A stretch of 64,000 nt of DNA from NCBI GenBank assembly GCA_910583895.1, contig CAJTYJ010000018.1, positions 251 through 64,250 on the forward strand. Direction: 5' to 3'. A program made the translations under genes and the position numbers. Below the pieces are notes generated by a model that searched no databases, was not told the DNA's origin, and saw only the letters and a list, made by a program, of their open reading frames with translations. Source of the DNA: an uncultured Lachnospiraceae bacterium (GTDB lineage Bacteria; Bacillota; Clostridia; Lachnospirales; Lachnospiraceae). Numbering within the stretch: the stretch's first letter is position 1; every line of letters begins with the position of its first letter. This document shows, one piece after another, positions 55 to 54,645 of the stretch.

Positions 55-1098
55 ATGCCCTTATCCTATCACGAACAGATGGATTTAATTAACATAAAAA
101 AATTACGTGAACTTCAAAAGGAACTTCCGGCTTTTGCCAGTGATTTTTTCCGGGCGATGGAGATTAAGAAGGCAACCAACACGCGACGGAATTATGCCTA
201 TGATCTGAGCACTTTCTTCTATTTCCTGAAAACAGAAAATCCCTACTTCAAGAATAAAGATGTCCGTACCCTTCCGGTTTCCGTCCTGGATAATTTGCAG
301 CCGGTGGATATTGAAGAATATCTCTCCTTTCTCACTTACTATGAAAAGGATGGCCAGGTGTACCAGAACCATGAGGAAGGCAAAGCACGAAAATTGGCGA
401 CACTGAACACATTTTTTGGTTATTTTCATAAAAAAGAAATGATTCAGAAAAATGCACCATCTGTGGTAGATGTGCCGAGAGTCAAAGAAAAAAATATCAT
501 CCGTATGGACGCCAACGAAGTAGCCCAACTGATTGACAATATAGAATCTGGAGAAAAACTGACCAAACAGCAGAAAGTCTGGCACAGCCGAAATAAGCTG
601 CGGGATCTGGCAATCGTTGTCACGTTGCTCGGAACAGGTGTTCGAGTGACAGAGCTGGTGGGGCTGGATCTCTCGGACCTGGATTTTGACAATGGTGCCA
701 TACGGGTGATCCGGAAAGGAGGAAGCGAAGATATCGTATATTTTGGAGAAGAAACAGAGGAAATGCTTCGCAATTATCTCGAAGAGCGTCTGGCCATGGA
801 TCCGGAACCCGGGCATGAAAACGCTCTGTTTATCTCTCAGAATAACACCCGGATTACCGTGCGCTCCGTGGAGCGTCTGGTAAAAAAATATGCTTCCACG
901 GCCACTGTCAAAAAAATCACTCCCCATAAACTGCGCAGTACCTATGGAACCTCCCTGTATCAGGAGACCGGTGATATCTACCTGGTGGCCGATGTCCTTG
1001 GACACAAAAACGTCAATACCACCCGAAAGCATTATGCTGCCATGAAGGAAGAAAATAAACGAAAAGCTGCCAATGTTGTGCAGCTAAGAGAACGCTAA
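55..1098 (+). CDS. Tyrosine site-specific recombinase (XerC/XerD / phage-integrase family)
   Basis: 347-aa ORF with AGGAGG about 8 nt upstream of the ATG. Catalytic-domain signatures are TGVRVTEL (Arg), HKLRSTYGT (His-x-x-Arg) and LGHKNVNTTRKHY (His ... Tyr). Confidence 0.9.
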   Translation: MPLSYHEQMDLINIKKLRELQKELPAFASDFFRAMEIKKATNTRRNYAYDLSTFFYFLKTENPYFKNKDVRTLPVSVLDNLQPVDIEEYLSFLTYYEKDGQVYQNHEEGKARKLATLNTFFGYFHKKEMIQKNAPSVVDVPRVKEKNIIRMDANEVAQLIDNIESGEKLTKQQKVWHSRNKLRDLAIVVTLLGTGVRVTELVGLDLSDLDFDNGAIRVIRKGGSEDIVYFGEETEEMLRNYLEERLAMDPEPGHENALFISQNNTRITVRSVERLVKKYASTATVKKITPHKLRSTYGTSLYQETGDIYLVADVLGHKNVNTTRKHYAAMKEENKRKAANVVQLRER

Positions 1099-1103
1099 GA
1101 TAA

Positions 1104-1127
1104 GGAGCGCCAGAATTCCGGCGCTCC
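1104..1127. terminator. Possible bidirectional hairpin between convergent genes
   Basis: GGAGCGCC-agaattcc-GGCGCTCC: 8-bp perfect stem directly after the recombinase stop. No clear T-run follows, so this is weak. Confidence 0.3.
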
Positions 1128-1193
1128 CCTCTCTTCTATCCCATGTCCATACCGGACGAAATTTTATAAAACATATGAATTGCAATCGTCTGT

Positions 1194-2132
1194 TTAATGA
1201 TACGACCACAGATTTTTGATCTGCTTTTCCAACTCTTCATAGGTCCATTTCTTTTCGCTTCTTGCTTTACAATTGGGATCATTAACCAGAAATCCCTTTT
1301 TATCATAACCGTAGATCATGATAAAATGTCCCGCCGCGGTAAAGTCTCCGGCCCGCATGGCACAGATAATCGGGTGTCCTGCATCCAGCTCTTTTTTCAT
1401 CACAAATTCATCCAGTGAAATCTCAGAGCCGGTCACGCCGAATGCCTCCGCCCCGTCGGTCATCAGATCCCAGGATGTTCCCGTTCCTTCTATATAATAC
1501 CCTTGCTCTTCCGAATATCGGGCAACCTTGTCAGGAGTCGCCATTGCATTGTCAGTCAGACCGTAGATCACCATAGACAGGCAGGTTGGTCCGCAGCCGG
1601 AGATTCCGATGCTGCTGGCACCATAGGAACCATATCCCCAGCGCTCGTCCCACTGAAGAAACAGCGGATAGTCACTCTTTTTCTCTTTTTTTGTCAGCTC
1701 TCCATTGACCGTACCGTCATGATCCGGGTATCCTTTTACATAGTCTAACATCTCCGGATTGTTGGCAAGAGCTGCCAGATACACTTCCGGGTAGGATTCA
1801 TAATTGTCCAGAATCTCTTTGAACCCTTTCTTCTCTTCCGCCAGTTCTTCCAGTCTTTCGCGCACTTCTGACTCCACGCGCTGTTTGGGCGCTTCCATCT
1901 CATAGGTTTTCGTACCTGAGAAATGACCAATTGTTCGCAGAAGAAAGAACAAAATCCCTGCCATAACGACAAGAATCAAAAACAGGCAGGCCAGTCTGCA
2001 GATTCGCCTGATCTTCCGGCGCAGCCGTCGCTTTTTCTTTCTGCGCATCTGCTCCCGCCTTCTCATCCGCTCCCGCTCTGTCATCCTTTGTCTTTGCTCC
2101 ATCCCGTCTTTCATCCCTTCGTATGTTCTCAA
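1194..2132 (-). CDS. Membrane-anchored peptidase C39-like (C39_2) domain protein
   Basis: 312-aa ORF with an Arg/Lys-rich N-terminus and one TM helix (LACLFLILVVMAGILFFLL). The C-terminal domain carries WGYGSYG...ISGCGPTCLSMV (Cys nucleophile context) and AAGHFIMIYGYD...VNDP. Confidence 0.75.
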   Translation of the reverse strand: MRTYEGMKDGMEQRQRMTERERMRRREQMRRKKKRRLRRKIRRICRLACLFLILVVMAGILFFLLRTIGHFSGTKTYEMEAPKQRVESEVRERLEELAEEKKGFKEILDNYESYPEVYLAALANNPEMLDYVKGYPDHDGTVNGELTKKEKKSDYPLFLQWDERWGYGSYGASSIGISGCGPTCLSMVIYGLTDNAMATPDKVARYSEEQGYYIEGTGTSWDLMTDGAEAFGVTGSEISLDEFVMKKELDAGHPIICAMRAGDFTAAGHFIMIYGYDKKGFLVNDPNCKARSEKKWTYEELEKQIKNLWSYH

Positions 2133-2225
2133 ATTCTAAGCGAATTCAACAAATATAGAGTAACATATTTTCCGGTTTTTATGTCTGAAGCAAATCATAA
2201 GATTTCTTAAGAAATACTGAAAAGG

Positions 2226-2798
2226 TCAGAAAGACCCGCGTTTCAGCTGTGCTCTGCACTCGCGCCATTTTGGATAATGCTGATCTAAGATCCCGTAAAA
2301 ACGTGCATTGTGTCCGGTTTCCAGAAGATGCGTCAGTTCATGGACAACCACATACTCGATACACTCCTCAGGGAATGCTCCAAGCCAGACACTGATGGAG
2401 ATATTGCCGGATCGGATGCTGCAGCTTCCCCACTGGGAACGGGTGTCCCGGATCGTCACTTTATTACATCGGACTCCCAGGATCCGTTCCCATTTGAGAA
2501 TCAAATCCGGTAGAATTTTTTGCAAATGCTCTCGATAAAAAGCCATCTGCTTTTGCTTATCTTCCTTTTGCATCTCTGGCTTTGTCAAAGATTCGCTGGC
2601 TTTCTTTTGGTACTTCTCTACCCAGCGAAGAATTCGCGGCTGGTTTAGAATCTGTTCCACTGCTTCGTATTTCATGGAACAGGGAATGGAGACACGAATC
2701 ACATCCGGTTCTTCCGGCCGGATCCGAAGATTTGTATGCTTCACTTTCTTTTTCGTAATCTGCACGCGGCAGCCGTGCCAGTTATATTCCTTCATCAT
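2226..2798 (-). CDS. YgjP/DUF45 (SprT-like, M48-type) zinc metallopeptidase
   Basis: 190-aa ORF with WGSCS...ISIS followed by the HExxH motif (VVHELTHLLETGHNARF), typical of the DUF45/YgjP family. Confidence 0.8.
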   Translation of the reverse strand: MMKEYNWHGCRVQITKKKVKHTNLRIRPEEPDVIRVSIPCSMKYEAVEQILNQPRILRWVEKYQKKASESLTKPEMQKEDKQKQMAFYREHLQKILPDLILKWERILGVRCNKVTIRDTRSQWGSCSIRSGNISISVWLGAFPEECIEYVVVHELTHLLETGHNARFYGILDQHYPKWRECRAQLKRGSF

Positions 2799-2808
2799 GC
2801 CTCACGAG

Positions 2809-3792
2809 TTATGCTCTTCTGACATAGGGCTTATTCTCTGTCTCTTTTTCCTGGAATTCCGGCAGGTCTACGGCAGCCTTATAAGCGGCAAAGCCTCTGG
2901 AACTGCCAAGGGAAAGGGGTGCAGCAACAGGTTCGGCATCCGGAAGCACATTGGGCATCTGGATTTTTGTTGCCTGGTTATCCATCATTCCGGCGGCAAT
3001 CATGTATTTGGCTATCCGCTCCTCGTTCATCACCTCGCTGGCCATCAATTCAGCAGCGATGATTTCTTTCTGCCGCATCTCCATTCCTCTCTCTTCCTGC
3101 TCTTCTGTTTCCAGCATTTTTTCTTCTATAAGTTCTTCCGTCATTTCTTTCTTCAGTGCAGCTTCCTGTTGCATCTTTTCCTCCATCTTTTTCTTTCGGG
3201 CTGCCTCCTCTCTTCGCTTCTTCTCTGCTTTTCTCTTTCGGATTTTCTTGTCTTCCTTTGCTTTTGCTTTTTTGCGGGCTTCCAGCTGTTTTTTGTCAAG
3301 ATCCTTCTGCCACGGTTTTCGCGTCACAATAGAGGCCATCTTTTTCTCTGCCTCTTTCATCTGGTTGAGACGAATCATCAGGTACTCTGCATCTTCCTTG
3401 CTCAGATTGGAAGCCATCTCTGCCAGCTTCTGCGTCTTGATCCGCTCTGCATCGTCCCGTGTACGGCACTTTTTCAGACGGTCCTCATAGGCCGCCTGTT
3501 CTTGCTCTAGTGCCATAACTTTCATATAAAGCTGCGGATCATGTTTTTTCAGAAATTCCTTCTCCGCACTGGTCAGCCTGGCGCCTGCCTTAAGTTTTGC
3601 CCGAATCTTTCCAAGCTTCGCCTGAACAGCCGTCTCATCACTGGTCTTTCCTCCGGAAGAGATGGCCTTGGCAAAAGAAGCATGCAGATCCATCTTCTCT
3701 GTCAAAGGGACTTCTCCGGATTCTTTCATTTCCCAGTACCCCTGCATCTTTGTCTGTCTGAGGTATTGGTACATATTGTTGTACAATTCCAT
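2809..3792 (-). CDS. Hypothetical protein with a long Lys/Glu-rich coiled-coil core
   Basis: 327-aa ORF with GGAGGTGA upstream of the ATG. The central ~120 aa are nearly pure K/E/R/A low complexity. No recognisable catalytic motif. Confidence 0.6.
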   Translation of the reverse strand: MELYNNMYQYLRQTKMQGYWEMKESGEVPLTEKMDLHASFAKAISSGGKTSDETAVQAKLGKIRAKLKAGARLTSAEKEFLKKHDPQLYMKVMALEQEQAAYEDRLKKCRTRDDAERIKTQKLAEMASNLSKEDAEYLMIRLNQMKEAEKKMASIVTRKPWQKDLDKKQLEARKKAKAKEDKKIRKRKAEKKRREEAARKKKMEEKMQQEAALKKEMTEELIEEKMLETEEQEERGMEMRQKEIIAAELMASEVMNEERIAKYMIAAGMMDNQATKIQMPNVLPDAEPVAAPLSLGSSRGFAAYKAAVDLPEFQEKETENKPYVRRA

Positions 3793-52041: not shown

Positions 52042-53355
52042 CTAACAAAGGGCGATCTTTCCCTTCGTCTCCCGGAAACGACTGGAATAAAACGCTTTCA
52101 TCACCCGGATCAGGTCGTCGGTGTCCTTGACTCCGGCCGTCTCACAGACAGAGTGCATGGCCAGCTGAGGAAGACCGATATCCACCCCGTAGAGCGGAAT
52201 TTTGGAGATGGCAAGATTGCCAAGAGTGCTGCCTCCTGCCATGTCAGAGCGGTTTGCAAAAAACTGCACCGGGGCGCCTGCTTTTTTGCACAGTTCCGAA
52301 AACAGCGCAATGCTCACTCCGTCACTGATGTATTTTTGTCCTGCATGGGACTTTATGACAATCCCTTCGTTCATATAAACGCAGTTTTTGGGGTCCGACT
52401 TTTCCGGATGGTTCGGATGAACAGCATGGGCATTGTCCGCGCTCACCAAAAAGCTTTCGGACAAAGCCTGAAAGAAAGACTCCTGCGTCCCTCCAAGACA
52501 CCCGTGAAATCGCCGGAGGATATCCGATAAAAAGGCGGAGTCTGCCCCCTGCCTGGTCCTGGATCCCACTTCTTCACTGTCGAAGCAGGCAAAGACATGG
52601 ACCGAATCGTTCGGCCTTCCCTGTAAAAATCCCTGCAAAGTCCCGTAGACACACTGCAGATCGTCCAGACGCTGGGCAGAGATAAATTCTTCTTCCGCCC
52701 CCCAAAGAGCAGGTTCCTGCCGGCTGTATAGATACAGGTCGCTCCCCCGGATCTCTTCAGCCGCGACTCCTGCCGCCTCCGCAATCTGTTTTAGAAACGC
52801 TCCTTTTTCTGCGGTTTGGCCTCCGAACAGGGGCAAAAGATCAATCTGCTTATTGTATGCAAACCCTTCGTTGGCGTTCCGGTTCATATGAATCGCCACG
52901 CTTGGGATCAGGAGAAGGTCCCGGTCCACCTTCACAATCCTGGAGACAAAGTGTTCCCCTTCTTTTACAATCAGCCTGCCTGCCACGGACAGAGGGCGGT
53001 CGAACCAGGTGGAACAGAGCATCCCTCCGTATCCTTCGGTATTCAGCTGTATATATTTGCCCCGCACCTCAAGCTCCGGGCATTCTTTGATCTTGAAGGT
53101 GGGAGAATCGCTGTGGGACGCTGCGATCTGAAAGTTCCAGCGCCCCGGAACAGGTCCTGTGTGAAACGCGATCAGACTGGAATCGTTCCGGATTATATAA
53201 TACTTCCCTTCTGGCTGCACCTCCCACCTGCTGCTCTCCCAGAGTCTTTTGTATCCCTGCTCCTCCAGGATCTCGCTGATTCTTTTCACCGTATGAAACG
53301 CGGTCGGACAGTCTTTTAAAAAAGTGATAAAGTCATGGATTGTTTTTTTATACAT
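52042..53355 (-). CDS. M18 family aminopeptidase
   Basis: Start trimmed to MYKKTIHDFITFL, with AGGAGAA upstream. Contains AASHSDSPTFKIK, CFDSEEVGS, GSTLG and DIGLPQLAMHS motifs. Confidence 0.88.
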   Translation of the reverse strand: MYKKTIHDFITFLKDCPTAFHTVKRISEILEEQGYKRLWESSRWEVQPEGKYYIIRNDSSLIAFHTGPVPGRWNFQIAASHSDSPTFKIKECPELEVRGKYIQLNTEGYGGMLCSTWFDRPLSVAGRLIVKEGEHFVSRIVKVDRDLLLIPSVAIHMNRNANEGFAYNKQIDLLPLFGGQTAEKGAFLKQIAEAAGVAAEEIRGSDLYLYSRQEPALWGAEEEFISAQRLDDLQCVYGTLQGFLQGRPNDSVHVFACFDSEEVGSRTRQGADSAFLSDILRRFHGCLGGTQESFFQALSESFLVSADNAHAVHPNHPEKSDPKNCVYMNEGIVIKSHAGQKYISDGVSIALFSELCKKAGAPVQFFANRSDMAGGSTLGNLAISKIPLYGVDIGLPQLAMHSVCETAGVKDTDDLIRVMKAFYSSRFRETKGKIALC

Positions 53356-53370
53356 CTGTTTCTCCTGATT

Positions 53371-53681
53371 TGAGTTCCGCTCCTGCCCACCCGGCACACC
53401 TTTTGCAGATCCATTCTCAGACGTTTTCACGTCTGCTCATCGATCTGTGCGCCGGGTGGGCCTCCGCTGTTTTTTGAGTCCCGCTTCTGCCCACCCGGCA
53501 CACCTTTTGCAGATCCATTCTCAGACGTTTCCACGTCTGCTCATCGATCTGTGCGCCGGGTGGGCCTCCGCTGTTTTTTGAGTTCCGCTCCTGCCCACCC
53601 AGCATACCTTTTGCAGATCCATTCTCAGACGTGAAAACGTCTGCTCATTGATCTGTGCGCCGGGTGGGCCTCCGCTGTTTT
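53371..53681. repeat. Three tandem 104-bp direct repeats, each a long imperfect hairpin
   Basis: Copies lie at 53371-53474, 53475-53578 and 53579-53681. Each unit has outer arms GCCCACCCGGC / GCCGGGTGGGC, middle arms CAGATC / GATCTG, and an apical CAGACGT-NNNN-ACGTCTG. Confidence 0.9.
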
Positions 53682-54558
53682 AGGTTTCGTCCGGCACGAT
53701 TTCCACCACCACCAGCTCTGGACGGTTGAAGACACGGGGCAGCAGGTTTTTACACAGTCCCCTGCTCACGATCATGACCGTATCGCCCAGGTCATAGCGC
53801 CCTCCTGCATATGGGGGGAACCAGCCCTGATTGGGAGCCAGAAGTCCGTTTAAAACGCCCGGGATGCGCACCTGGCCCCCGTGGGCATGACCGGCTGTGA
53901 CCAGATCAAACCCCGGCTTGGAATCTTTGCTCTCATGAGTATAGTAGCTTACCAGCTCCGGACGATGAGACATCAGCACTGAAAAATACTTTCGATCCAG
54001 CGCCTGCCTGCATCGGGCCAGCTGATTTTCCCACTCTGCCATGGCCTCCGGGTCATACCTGTGTTTTTGCCCGTATCCGTCCGGATCGTCCACGCCGCAG
54101 ATCTGGATCGTCTGCTCTTTTACTTCCAGCAGCGCGCATTCTCCTTCCAGAACCCGGACTCCGTAAGAAGCGATCATCTGTTTGATCTTGGGCTCTTCAC
54201 CGGACCAGTATTCATGATTGCCGCTTACATAAAAGCAGGGATATATATCCCCAACCGCAGACAGTAGCACCTTTGTCCCGTCGTGGGGGACTTCGTCATC
54301 CGCAATATCTCCCACAAGAAGCACCGCATCCGGTCCGCAGCTTTGAAGGGTGCGGACCAGTTCCCCCTGATCTTCCCCGTAAAATGTACTGTGCAGGTCT
54401 GTCAGAACTGCCAGAATCACCGGCTTTTCCACCTTGTCAGAGACTATCGGATAGTATCGGACTGCAAGCTTTTGACTGCACGCAGACTTCAGGAATACCA
54501 GCACCAGTACGGCCGCGCACAGAATCACCAGACGCCTTTTTTTCCACTTTATTTTCAT
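53680..54558 (-). CDS. Membrane-anchored metallophosphoesterase (YkuE/calcineurin-like)
   Basis: Start trimmed to MKIKWKKRRLVIL. Contains LTDLHS, VGDIAD, GNHE and AGHAHGGQ motifs. Confidence 0.88.
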   Translation of the reverse strand: MKIKWKKRRLVILCAAVLVLVFLKSACSQKLAVRYYPIVSDKVEKPVILAVLTDLHSTFYGEDQGELVRTLQSCGPDAVLLVGDIADDEVPHDGTKVLLSAVGDIYPCFYVSGNHEYWSGEEPKIKQMIASYGVRVLEGECALLEVKEQTIQICGVDDPDGYGQKHRYDPEAMAEWENQLARCRQALDRKYFSVLMSHRPELVSYYTHESKDSKPGFDLVTAGHAHGGQVRIPGVLNGLLAPNQGWFPPYAGGRYDLGDTVMIVSRGLCKNLLPRVFNRPELVVVEIVPDET

Positions 54559-54645
54559 GGCACCATTCCTTCCTGTCAAAACTGTGTCATCTCATAACTT
54601 ATGCAAAAACAGGCAATGCTTTTACACATCACCTGTTCGTCTTGT

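Follow-up and report, generated by a model that had tools for sequence, protein, structure and literature searches.

A strain-variable tandem array of a dispersed, non-coding hairpin element ahead of Shine-Dalgarno sequences in an uncultured Lachnospiraceae bacterium

The array between the metallophosphoesterase and aminopeptidase genes

We analysed a 64,000-nucleotide (nt) stretch of DNA from an uncultured Lachnospiraceae bacterium (NCBI GenBank assembly GCA_910583895.1, contig CAJTYJ010000018.1, positions 251 to 64,250 of the forward strand; hereafter the window), in which a tandem array of hairpin-forming units separates the gene of a calcineurin-like phosphoesterase (metallophosphoesterase) from that of an M18 aminopeptidase (Table 1). 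Both neighbours have the minus strand as their sense strand, and along it the array occupies the gap from the stop codon of the first gene to the Shine-Dalgarno sequence (SD) of the second, starting 4 nt past the TAA and ending 7 nt ahead of AGGAGA. Tandem Repeats Finder places it at 53369-53681 as the sole long-period array of the window (period 104, 3.0 copies, 94% matches, score 556), and a gapless alignment of the three 104-base-pair (bp) units has a mean column identity of 96%. An earlier, sequence-only reading of this DNA had described three tandem 104-bp units, each a hairpin with named helices, filling the gap between the two genes, and the repeat search, the alignment and the positions of the TAA, the SD and the ATG all bear it out. 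The helices themselves are also found: the minus-strand folds of units 1, 2 and 3 have predicted energies of -56.3, -56.3 and -44.2 kcal/mol (z against shuffled sequences of -8.9, -7.4 and -5.0), the plus-strand folds are weaker (-45.8, -45.6 and -39.6 kcal/mol), and every unit far surpasses shuffled sequences in its folding. The plus-strand pattern CAGACGT-NNNN-ACGTCTG, which forms the tip of each hairpin, occurs 3 times where 0.09 would be expected. Unit 3 has a weaker outer stem, with one G.U and one C.A, and scores 79.2 bits with the covariance model described below.

Table 1. Features of the window at the array and at the second family member (bit scores are those of the covariance model)
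Feature	Position	Strand or reading	Remarks
Calcineurin-like phosphoesterase (metallophosphoesterase) gene	53680-54579	minus	stop TAA 53682-53680
TAA stop of metallophosphoesterase plus AA	53678..53682	minus	A-run directly 5′ of element; insertion point
Unit 3	53582..53677	minus	first in sense direction; 4 nt after TAA; haplotype H3, sense loop UUUC
Apical palindrome, 18 nt	53626..53643	plus-strand reading	CAGACGT GAAA ACGTCTG; inverted loop GAAA (53633-53636)
Unit 2	53478..53573	minus	sense loop GGAA; 3′ box mutated to AGCGGGAC; 84 bits
Apical palindrome, 18 nt	53522-53539	plus-strand reading	loop TTCC (53529-53532)
Inter-unit linker UCAAAAAA	53470..53477	minus	repeated at 53574-53581
Unit 1	53374..53469	minus	last in sense direction, adjoins SD; haplotype H1, sense loop GAAA; 87.8 bits
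Apical palindrome, 18 nt	53418-53435	plus-strand reading	loop TTTC (53425-53428)
Host-derived linker UCAAAUC plus SD AGGAGA of aminopeptidase gene	53361..53373	minus	from comparison with the empty site of L066
M18 aminopeptidase gene	52042-53355	minus	ATG 53355; SD AGGAGA 53366-53361
Partial upstream 3′ box plus linker (GGGGCGCGGAAC UAUUUUCA)	26558..26577	minus	direct repeat flanking second member
Second family member	26463..26557	minus	59.9 bits, E about 1e-11

Three open reading frames (ORFs) of 44-62 codons cross the array (53340-53477 and 53447-53581 on the plus strand, 53417-53605 on the minus strand) and are generated purely by the repeat, as is the 25-codon N-terminal extension of the aminopeptidase that begins at a minus-strand GTG at 53430. 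The true aminopeptidase start is the ATG at 53355, as the Pfam M18 match begins at residue 12 and the orthologue of a sister species starts MYQETVNDF at the homologous ATG; the suspicion that the array-crossing ORFs are artefacts was therefore well founded. Gene callers may take such reading frames and extensions for genuine ones; the orthologue P0002 is annotated 8 residues too long.

The array is real and varies between strains, which carry 1, 2 or 3 copies. The junctions between copies 1 and 2 and between copies 2 and 3 are present in unitigs of the independent mouse-gut runs X1, X2 and X19, in X1 at a depth near that of the flanks, and a contig of a public metagenome-assembled genome (MAG; L061) holds a 3-copy array identical to that of the window. 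It would agree with an assembly artefact, in which a single-copy hairpin was rendered as three copies, that most runs (word share 0.74) and most contigs (the type of L062) have a single copy and that short-read contigs end inside the array. However, each unit has private variants, the junction-spanning unitigs come from three runs, and an independent public assembly has the same array while another has a two-copy form (L064), so that this explanation can practically be dismissed.

Contigs that encode an identical aminopeptidase protein fall into four alleles: three units as in the window (L061); one unit of haplotype H3, the commonest form (L062 and 13 similar places); one unit of haplotype H1 (L063 and 4 similar places); and two units, the first like copy 2 and the second H3 (L064). 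Most runs contain the form that skips exactly 208 bp and is thus a single unit. Unit 3 of the window is identical in sequence to L062 and unit 1 to the single-copy allele L063. The first unit of L064 carries a compensatory change from C-G to A-U in its outer stem, and hence compensation within one locus. Further arrangements of the array are found in runs X30 and X32, and copy number also differs at other loci (L049 versus L053, L032 versus L033).

The dispersed family: structure, strand and position

The sequence-only reading needs one correction, as the unit also occurs elsewhere: the window itself holds a second member, and metagenome contigs hold a dispersed family. That reading had likewise missed the constant placement 6-8 nt ahead of an SD and the variation in copy number. 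A pattern scan of the metagenome contigs with the conserved ends of the unit (GTTCCGCTNNNGCCC-N55-85-GGGCYTYCGCTG, written for the window plus strand) returned 59 loci, of which 56 are genuine and several are tandem arrays with a period of about 104; the other three (L026, L040 and L041) were rejected as chance matches in G+C-rich coding DNA, where the sense fold is not the better one. Searches of metagenome contigs with a covariance model (R1) built from 40 units (alignment A2) gave about 90 matches in 52 distinct loci, among them the second member in the window. Units are 95-101 nt long across the family. Extra matches in the fetched flanks suggest, as a rough estimate, a density of one locus per 30 kb. 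Copies that have diverged and stand in different flanks turn up in the same runs at 80% likeness, and contig variants with the flanks of one such locus, L044, are present in run X19 beside the window locus. The closest pair found, tandem units and orthologous strain copies excluded, is unit 1 of the window and L044, at 86% identity.

At every locus the sense strand has the same layout, namely an A-run, CAGCGRARGCCC, an imperfect hairpin of ~30 bp, GGGCNNNAGCGGAAC, 6-8 nt, an SD and a start codon. The second member lies 7 nt upstream of the SD AAGGAGG (26455-26449) of a Band_7/SPFH gene whose ATG is at 26442. Elsewhere in the window AGCGGAAC occurs at four sites, all within coding sequence and without a hairpin, so that the box is part of the element and no target that was there beforehand. 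The family, one of mouse-gut Lachnospiraceae, is apparently undescribed. A search of window positions 52800-54200 against Rfam release 15 (E<=10) gave only chance matches of the miRNA type, at 17-19 bits against gathering thresholds of 80-97, and at the gathering threshold none of 14 family loci has a match; there are no matches in viral contigs, and full-text searches of the literature turned up no account of the hairpin family.

A scan of the genome collection with the apical-stem pattern, which is too narrow for the family as a whole, gave one match, in the Lachnospiraceae MAG contig JAAVZR010000026.1 (L001, 6990-7140). This is a longer and different imperfect hairpin (about 150 nt) that shares only a 25-nt apical module, GAGCAGACGC-GAAA-GCGUCUGAGA, with L044 and the subfamily of the window; it is without the CAGCG and AGCGGAAC boxes, is not matched by R1, and may represent a related family in another lineage. 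A further variant, with an extra apical insertion of ~15-20 nt and a unit length of 111 nt, is present in L031 (9305-9415) and L058 (6886-6996). It stands upstream of the gene of a BMC shell protein, and the microcompartment operon concerned has three family members in 5 kb.

The stems vary in sequence from locus to locus, but they covary. In an alignment of 61 distinct units, which is fitted to the model and with which two independent checks agree, 94.3% of the cells in paired columns are paired, compared with 30-41% in slid controls, and 18 of the 20 pairs have changed on both sides, with values that none of 500 shuffles reaches. A check with MAFFT and RNAalifold finds compensation at 13 of 20 pairs. 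Folded individually, each of the 46 units examined has its more stable fold on the sense strand, and the minimum free energies (MFEs) sum to -2571 kcal/mol for sense and -2056 kcal/mol for antisense. The paired columns hold 70 G.U against 11 A.C. Because the summed MFE is better on the sense strand and G.U exceeds A.C, the pairing is under selection on one strand, which might act either as RNA or as single-stranded DNA (ssDNA) of that polarity.

This strand preference bears on whether the units could be intrinsic terminators or attenuators stacked between the genes, or else terminators of antisense transcription, a reading that we regard as very improbable. On the plus strand the hairpin is followed by CCTCCGCTG and TTTTT(T), the T-run, which is common across the family, standing 8 nt after the stem, and a simple scan gives terminator-like plus-strand sites in each unit. 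However, the T-run is antisense only, and it is the antisense pairing that is the worse in 46 of 46 units. The sense strand continues with CAGGAGCGGAACUCAAA after the stem and has no U-run, so that what defines an intrinsic terminator is absent from it, and contigs labelled as RNA span the element. Moreover, the sites lie between co-directional genes, or between a T-box leader and thrS, where a terminator would be polar.

The position of the element relative to genes is as regular as its structure. At 44 of 47 loci the start of a long ORF follows the last unit by no more than 30 nt, and at the remaining 3 the end of the contig comes before any ORF. Of the 47 downstream flanks listed, nearly all have the SD 6-8 nt past the unit and conform to the consensus U-NN-AAU-(A)GGAGG, followed by 6-9 nt and the start codon. 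Upstream, the stop codon of a same-strand ORF lies 2-40 nt away at 34 of the 47 loci; the remaining loci have an upstream spacer of 77-381 nt or no such ORF, and the 6-8 nt distance to the SD is held there too. A conserved A-run stands directly 5′ of the element, with A at 74-89% of sequences at each of positions -4 to -1. Relative to the downstream gene the element occurs in a single orientation only. The GC skew is positive in the sense orientation at 33 of 35 loci (the G-rich, probably leading, strand), and effects of the replication strand and of the gene strand are therefore inseparable in these data. The downstream genes encode ThrRS, PurE, PurA, Cmk, AroQ, RsfS, a BMC shell protein, an ABC ATPase, 3-hydroxyacyl-CoA dehydrogenase, Band_7 and M18 peptidase; as these are functionally unrelated, the element is not a regulon-specific riboswitch. 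At the thrS loci (L046 4156-4251; L010/L011) the element lies between an apparent T-box leader terminator (containing gagggtgcttttt) and the SD of the threonyl-tRNA synthetase gene, as an insertion downstream of an existing leader of the riboswitch type.

A cis-regulatory RNA module would be one way to account for such regularity. A clade-specific RNA-binding protein or nuclease would read the single-stranded boxes at the foot of the hairpin (CAGCGRAR and AGCGGAAC) and set the translation or decay of the next gene, and copy number would tune expression. The boxes hardly vary, whereas the stem does so freely, the SD follows at a fixed distance, the pairing that is selected is that of the sense strand, where G.U is the most frequent state of one position (35 of 61 sequences), and strains differ in copy number at several loci. 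We nevertheless consider such a module distinctly unlikely, as the conservation of the boxes was partly imposed by the search pattern and by a model built from its matches, the downstream genes have no common function, the orthologous genes of sister species do without the element, and no partner protein is known.

Insertion, amplification and loop inversion

Related species reveal the sites without the element. In L066, the closest other species (aminopeptidase 83% identical), the site reads TAA-AUCAAC-AGGAGA-AAUCAG-AUG, with 6 nt from stop to SD, and in L067 (aminopeptidase 75% identical, full synteny) it reads TGA-12 nt-AGGAGAG, whereas the occupied site of the window is TAA-AA-(units)-UCAAAUC-AGGAGA-AACAG-AUG. 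Set against the empty site TAAATCAACAGGAGA, the occupied site, TAAAA-(element)-TCAAATCAGGAGA, shows no duplicated target. This comparison identifies the SD and its 5′ linker as host-derived and places the element between the A-run and U. The sites orthologous to that of the Band_7 gene are likewise empty in four related species (66-84% identity), where R1 finds no match in 33 kb, and L066 carries a family member of its own at a different site. Since the sister species have the same gene order and empty sites, the elements are lineage-specific insertions without target duplication, and the family thus moves on the time scale of speciation and is, as far as seen, confined to a narrow clade. Where L066 has its own member (1790-1950), a 17-nt direct repeat of the 3′ box and linker (GGCAGGAGCGGAACTCT) overlaps the end of the aminopeptidase gene, both the final codons and the stop codon, and element-derived sequence appears to encode the C-terminus there.

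The main rival to the explanation given below is that the hairpin matters as ssDNA and serves mobility, being recognised by an HUH/Y1-type enzyme (IS200/IS605 TnpA or RAYT-like). Acting on the lagging-strand template, such an enzyme would excise the element and insert it 3′ of an A-rich target with no duplication, and whatever the element did to mRNA would be incidental. The absence of a target-site duplication, the A-run that adjoins the element on its 5′ side, the one orientation, which follows the G-rich strand, and the strand-specific pairing with tolerance of G.T are all consistent with this, and the 8-11 nt single-stranded tails beside the stem would resemble the end geometry of IS608, a member of the IS200/IS605 group. 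We judge it unlikely all the same. It does not predict that the SD stands at a constant 6-8 nt, neither a Y1 nor a RAYT gene is known for the family (no search for one was made), copies within one genome are diverged (<=86% identity) where a recent burst would give near-identical ones, and REP/REPIN clusters are typically inverted pairs and not direct tandem arrays.

Once inserted, the element appears to have been multiplied and lost in place. At about 60% of the loci the first unit is preceded by a partial 3′ box and a locus-specific linker, together of variable length (8-30 nt), and some of these partial copies, such as AAAAACAGCGGAACUUUAAAA in L021, look as if a unit had lost its hairpin by deletion between the two AGCGRAA direct repeats. 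The second member, which has 1 copy in the window, has undergone a 103-bp tandem duplication in runs X7, X25 and X29, and at the joint of this duplication (26561->26459) 11 letters are common to both sides. In the array of the window the inter-unit linker joins UCAA, with which the downstream flank begins, to AAAA, the A-run of the upstream flank. Because inter-unit linkers combine the start of the downstream flank with the A-run, and because near-identical contigs differ in copy number, cycles of duplication and deletion are suggested, in which an inserted element would be amplified or contracted by slippage or unequal recombination between short flanking direct repeats (the A-rich flanks, or box and linker). 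A model in which arrays arise by re-insertion was rejected, since the last unit retains the full host linker UCAAAUC.

The units also differ in the orientation of the apical loop. The plus-strand GAAA of copy 3 is the exact reverse complement of the TTTC of copy 1, while the 7-bp stem is unchanged, and between haplotypes H1 and H3 every one of the four loop bases is different, as are three other positions, each of these a transition. Thus the loop is the reverse complement of its counterpart, the arms are the same and other differences are few, as in a hairpin-loop inversion. Since the loop change is an exact reverse complement and only three other differences accompany it, it is best read, from the two sequences, as one inversion event and not as four substitutions, in keeping with the footprint of inversion or template switching proposed in the sequence-only reading. 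The end points of the inversion cannot be placed within the 7-bp arms of the 18-nt palindrome, and the bases of the flanking internal loop are not inverted. Among 50 close unit pairs compared, that of the window is the only exact loop inversion. As the subfamily relatives L044, L017 and the member at 26.5 kb in the window carry GAAA on the sense strand, UUUC is probably the derived state. Both orientations occur as single-copy alleles, each linked to the three transitions, and the array of the window holds both haplotypes.

Template switching is established as a mechanism from quasipalindrome mutagenesis and from the minute inversions of chloroplasts. Like the minute hairpin-loop inversions of chloroplast non-coding DNA and the template switches at bacterial quasipalindromes, the present case has an exact reverse-complement loop between unchanged arms; it does not differ from them in kind, but the units that it distinguishes are tandem paralogues, and it also exists as a polymorphism of strains. 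By this analogy, the flip is probably a template-switch (hairpin) inversion and selectively neutral. A special role for the GNRA-type loops that the sequence-only reading had pointed out on the sense strand is not supported, as loop sequence and length vary freely across the family and both orientations exist as single-copy alleles.

Proposed role and relation to known intergenic repeats

Taken together, the array is best explained as the strain-variable local amplification of one lineage-specific, mobile, non-coding hairpin element of ~96 nt, REP/ERIC/MITE-like in kind, that is co-transcribed between cistrons and does not terminate transcription, an explanation to which we assign a probability of roughly 0.6. 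The hairpin belongs to the transcribed intercistronic or 5′ leader region and lacks a terminator on the sense strand, and as an intercistronic RNA structure it could act as a barrier to exonucleases (3′-5′ and 5′-3′), as a processing site of the RNase III or RNase Y type, or as both. It might thereby uncouple the stability of the upstream cistron from that of the downstream cistron while transcription continues. Contigs that run from gene through element to gene are present in runs labelled metatranscriptome or RNA (X7, X16, X25 and X29), though the kind of run was mostly guessed ('RNA?') and the spanning contigs are assembled and may include DNA. By analogy with other transcribed hairpins we infer a role at the RNA level, in mRNA processing or stabilisation.

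Several points weigh against this explanation. The evidence from RNA consists of assembled contigs only, some of them possibly DNA, and any effect on expression is inferred. The predicted accessibility of the SD hardly changes, at 0.57 with the element and 0.55 without it. The sense orientation is that of the G-rich strand in 33 of 35 loci, so that an ssDNA mechanism, and not RNA, might lie behind both the orientation and the G.U(T) bias. Nor can selection by itself account for a distance of 6-8 nt to the SD at loci with an upstream spacer of 77-600 nt. Finally, no agent of mobility is known, no search for a transposase having been made.

Two further candidate functions were set aside. An insulating or SD-unmasking effect is not supported by the accessibilities just given. 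A promoter inside the element was also considered, and the element has no sigma-70-like hexamers; a GGAAC resembling a -35 box of the extracytoplasmic function (ECF) type was weighed too, but the CGTA stands 18 nt away from it and is not conserved, as judged only by reading the sequence.

A tentative alternative, which we think possible without favouring it, is that the family represents mobile hairpins of a new kind, which in a single orientation home to a fixed place 6-8 nt ahead of SDs, either through SD-proximal targeting or as an RNA module with a clade-specific factor, its copy number acting as a strain-level expression knob. If this were true, the bacterium would acquire, amplify and lose a structured leader before arbitrary genes. 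Either way, the placement in one orientation close to the SD is a feature that a specialist would not expect.

Among the functions that the sequence-only reading had listed, a REP/BIME-like element amplified in place comes closest to the evidence, while stacked terminators or attenuators are not supported, as the sense strand has no U-tract and RNA-labelled contigs span the element. REP elements act as stabilisers of mRNA 3′ ends, and the REP/BIME repeats of enterobacteria and pseudomonads (including REPINs with their RAYTs) share with the family high-copy extragenic hairpins, transcribed intergenic regions, local clusters and a non-coding nature. However, REPs are 20-40 nt long, cluster in alternating orientation, have a GTAG head and are not tied to an SD, whereas the units of the family, at 95-101 nt and typically ~96 nt, form direct head-to-tail tandems in which no GTAG head was seen, and the family is thus not one of REP/BIME repeats or REPINs. 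ERIC/IRU (127 bp), the Correia elements of Neisseria (NEMIS) and MITE-like palindromes are closer in size and setting, as imperfect palindromes of about 100-150 bp in transcribed intergenic regions. The RNA hairpins of ERIC and Correia elements can be cut by RNase III or RNase E and alter the stability of the flanking cistrons. These elements occur in both orientations, in contrast to the one orientation and fixed SD distance of the family, and Correia elements have TA target duplications and near-identical copies where the family has no duplication and has diverged copies with compensatory changes. The target-site duplication of a MITE, a miniature transposable element with inverted repeats, is equally absent, the partial boxes upstream at other loci being unit remnants of variable length (8-30 nt) and not duplications of fixed length.

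PATEs, which derive from IS200/IS605, resemble the family in their strand-specific hairpin, duplication-free insertion 3′ of a short motif and replication-strand bias of orientation. They differ in having two subterminal insertion-sequence-end hairpins and related full-length insertion sequences, neither of which was seen for the family, though no search was made. An integron attC site does not fit, as the boxes (AGCGRAA ... AGCGGAAC) are direct and not inverted repeats and the flanking genes are housekeeping operon genes, nor does a CRISPR, as within the array the whole 104-bp unit is repeated, variable hairpin included. The hairpins at which RNase III processes the early mRNA of phage T7, and the 5′ stem-loop stabilisers in the aprE and ermC leaders of Bacillus mRNAs, share a long hairpin with internal loops right before the SD of each cistron of a polycistronic RNA and the lack of termination, and the element would work in their manner; they are not repeated mobile sequences, and cleavage or stabilisation by the family would be expected only by analogy with them. 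By such comparisons the family would work like the long-palindrome intergenic repeats of Proteobacteria, and it differs from them in its single orientation, SD adjacency and head-to-tail amplification.

The region beside the second member contains a further feature. Between the MatE gene and this hairpin element lies a non-coding stretch (26606-27057, probably minus strand), over which the depth of the metatranscriptome contig of run X7 is about 1000-3400 at 26616-26791 and falls to 71 by 27055, with 52 over Band_7 and 16 over MatE. Adapter letters in X7 mark fragment ends at about 26606/26611, 26805, 26956 and 27057. The stretch includes a tRNA-like T-arm (GGAGGTTCGAATCCTCC, 26943-26959) and a terminator-like hairpin (26655-26670), and has a weak Rfam match to YrlA (Y RNA-like; 22 bits) and none by ARAGORN. 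In more distant relatives the Band_7 gene follows RtcB after a gap of about 530 nt that is partly conserved. The stretch may be an abundant unannotated non-coding RNA of the Y-RNA-like or tRNA-like kind.

Structured intergenic repeats such as REP, ERIC and Correia have been studied mainly in Proteobacteria. To our knowledge, almost nothing comparable has been described for the Clostridia of the gut, abundant organisms in which genetic manipulation is difficult. The family also poses an annotation problem, as the element makes false ORFs and start-codon extensions and breaks short-read assemblies, while its polymorphism of one, two or three copies is a ready marker for strain typing. The loop inversion can be seen at the level of populations, its two states existing as separate alleles and as neighbours in one array. 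The family precedes unrelated housekeeping and metabolic genes, and strains of one species differ in its copy number. Should the hairpin influence the decay or translation of mRNA, strains of the mouse gut microbiota would differ in expression for a reason that has gone unnoticed.

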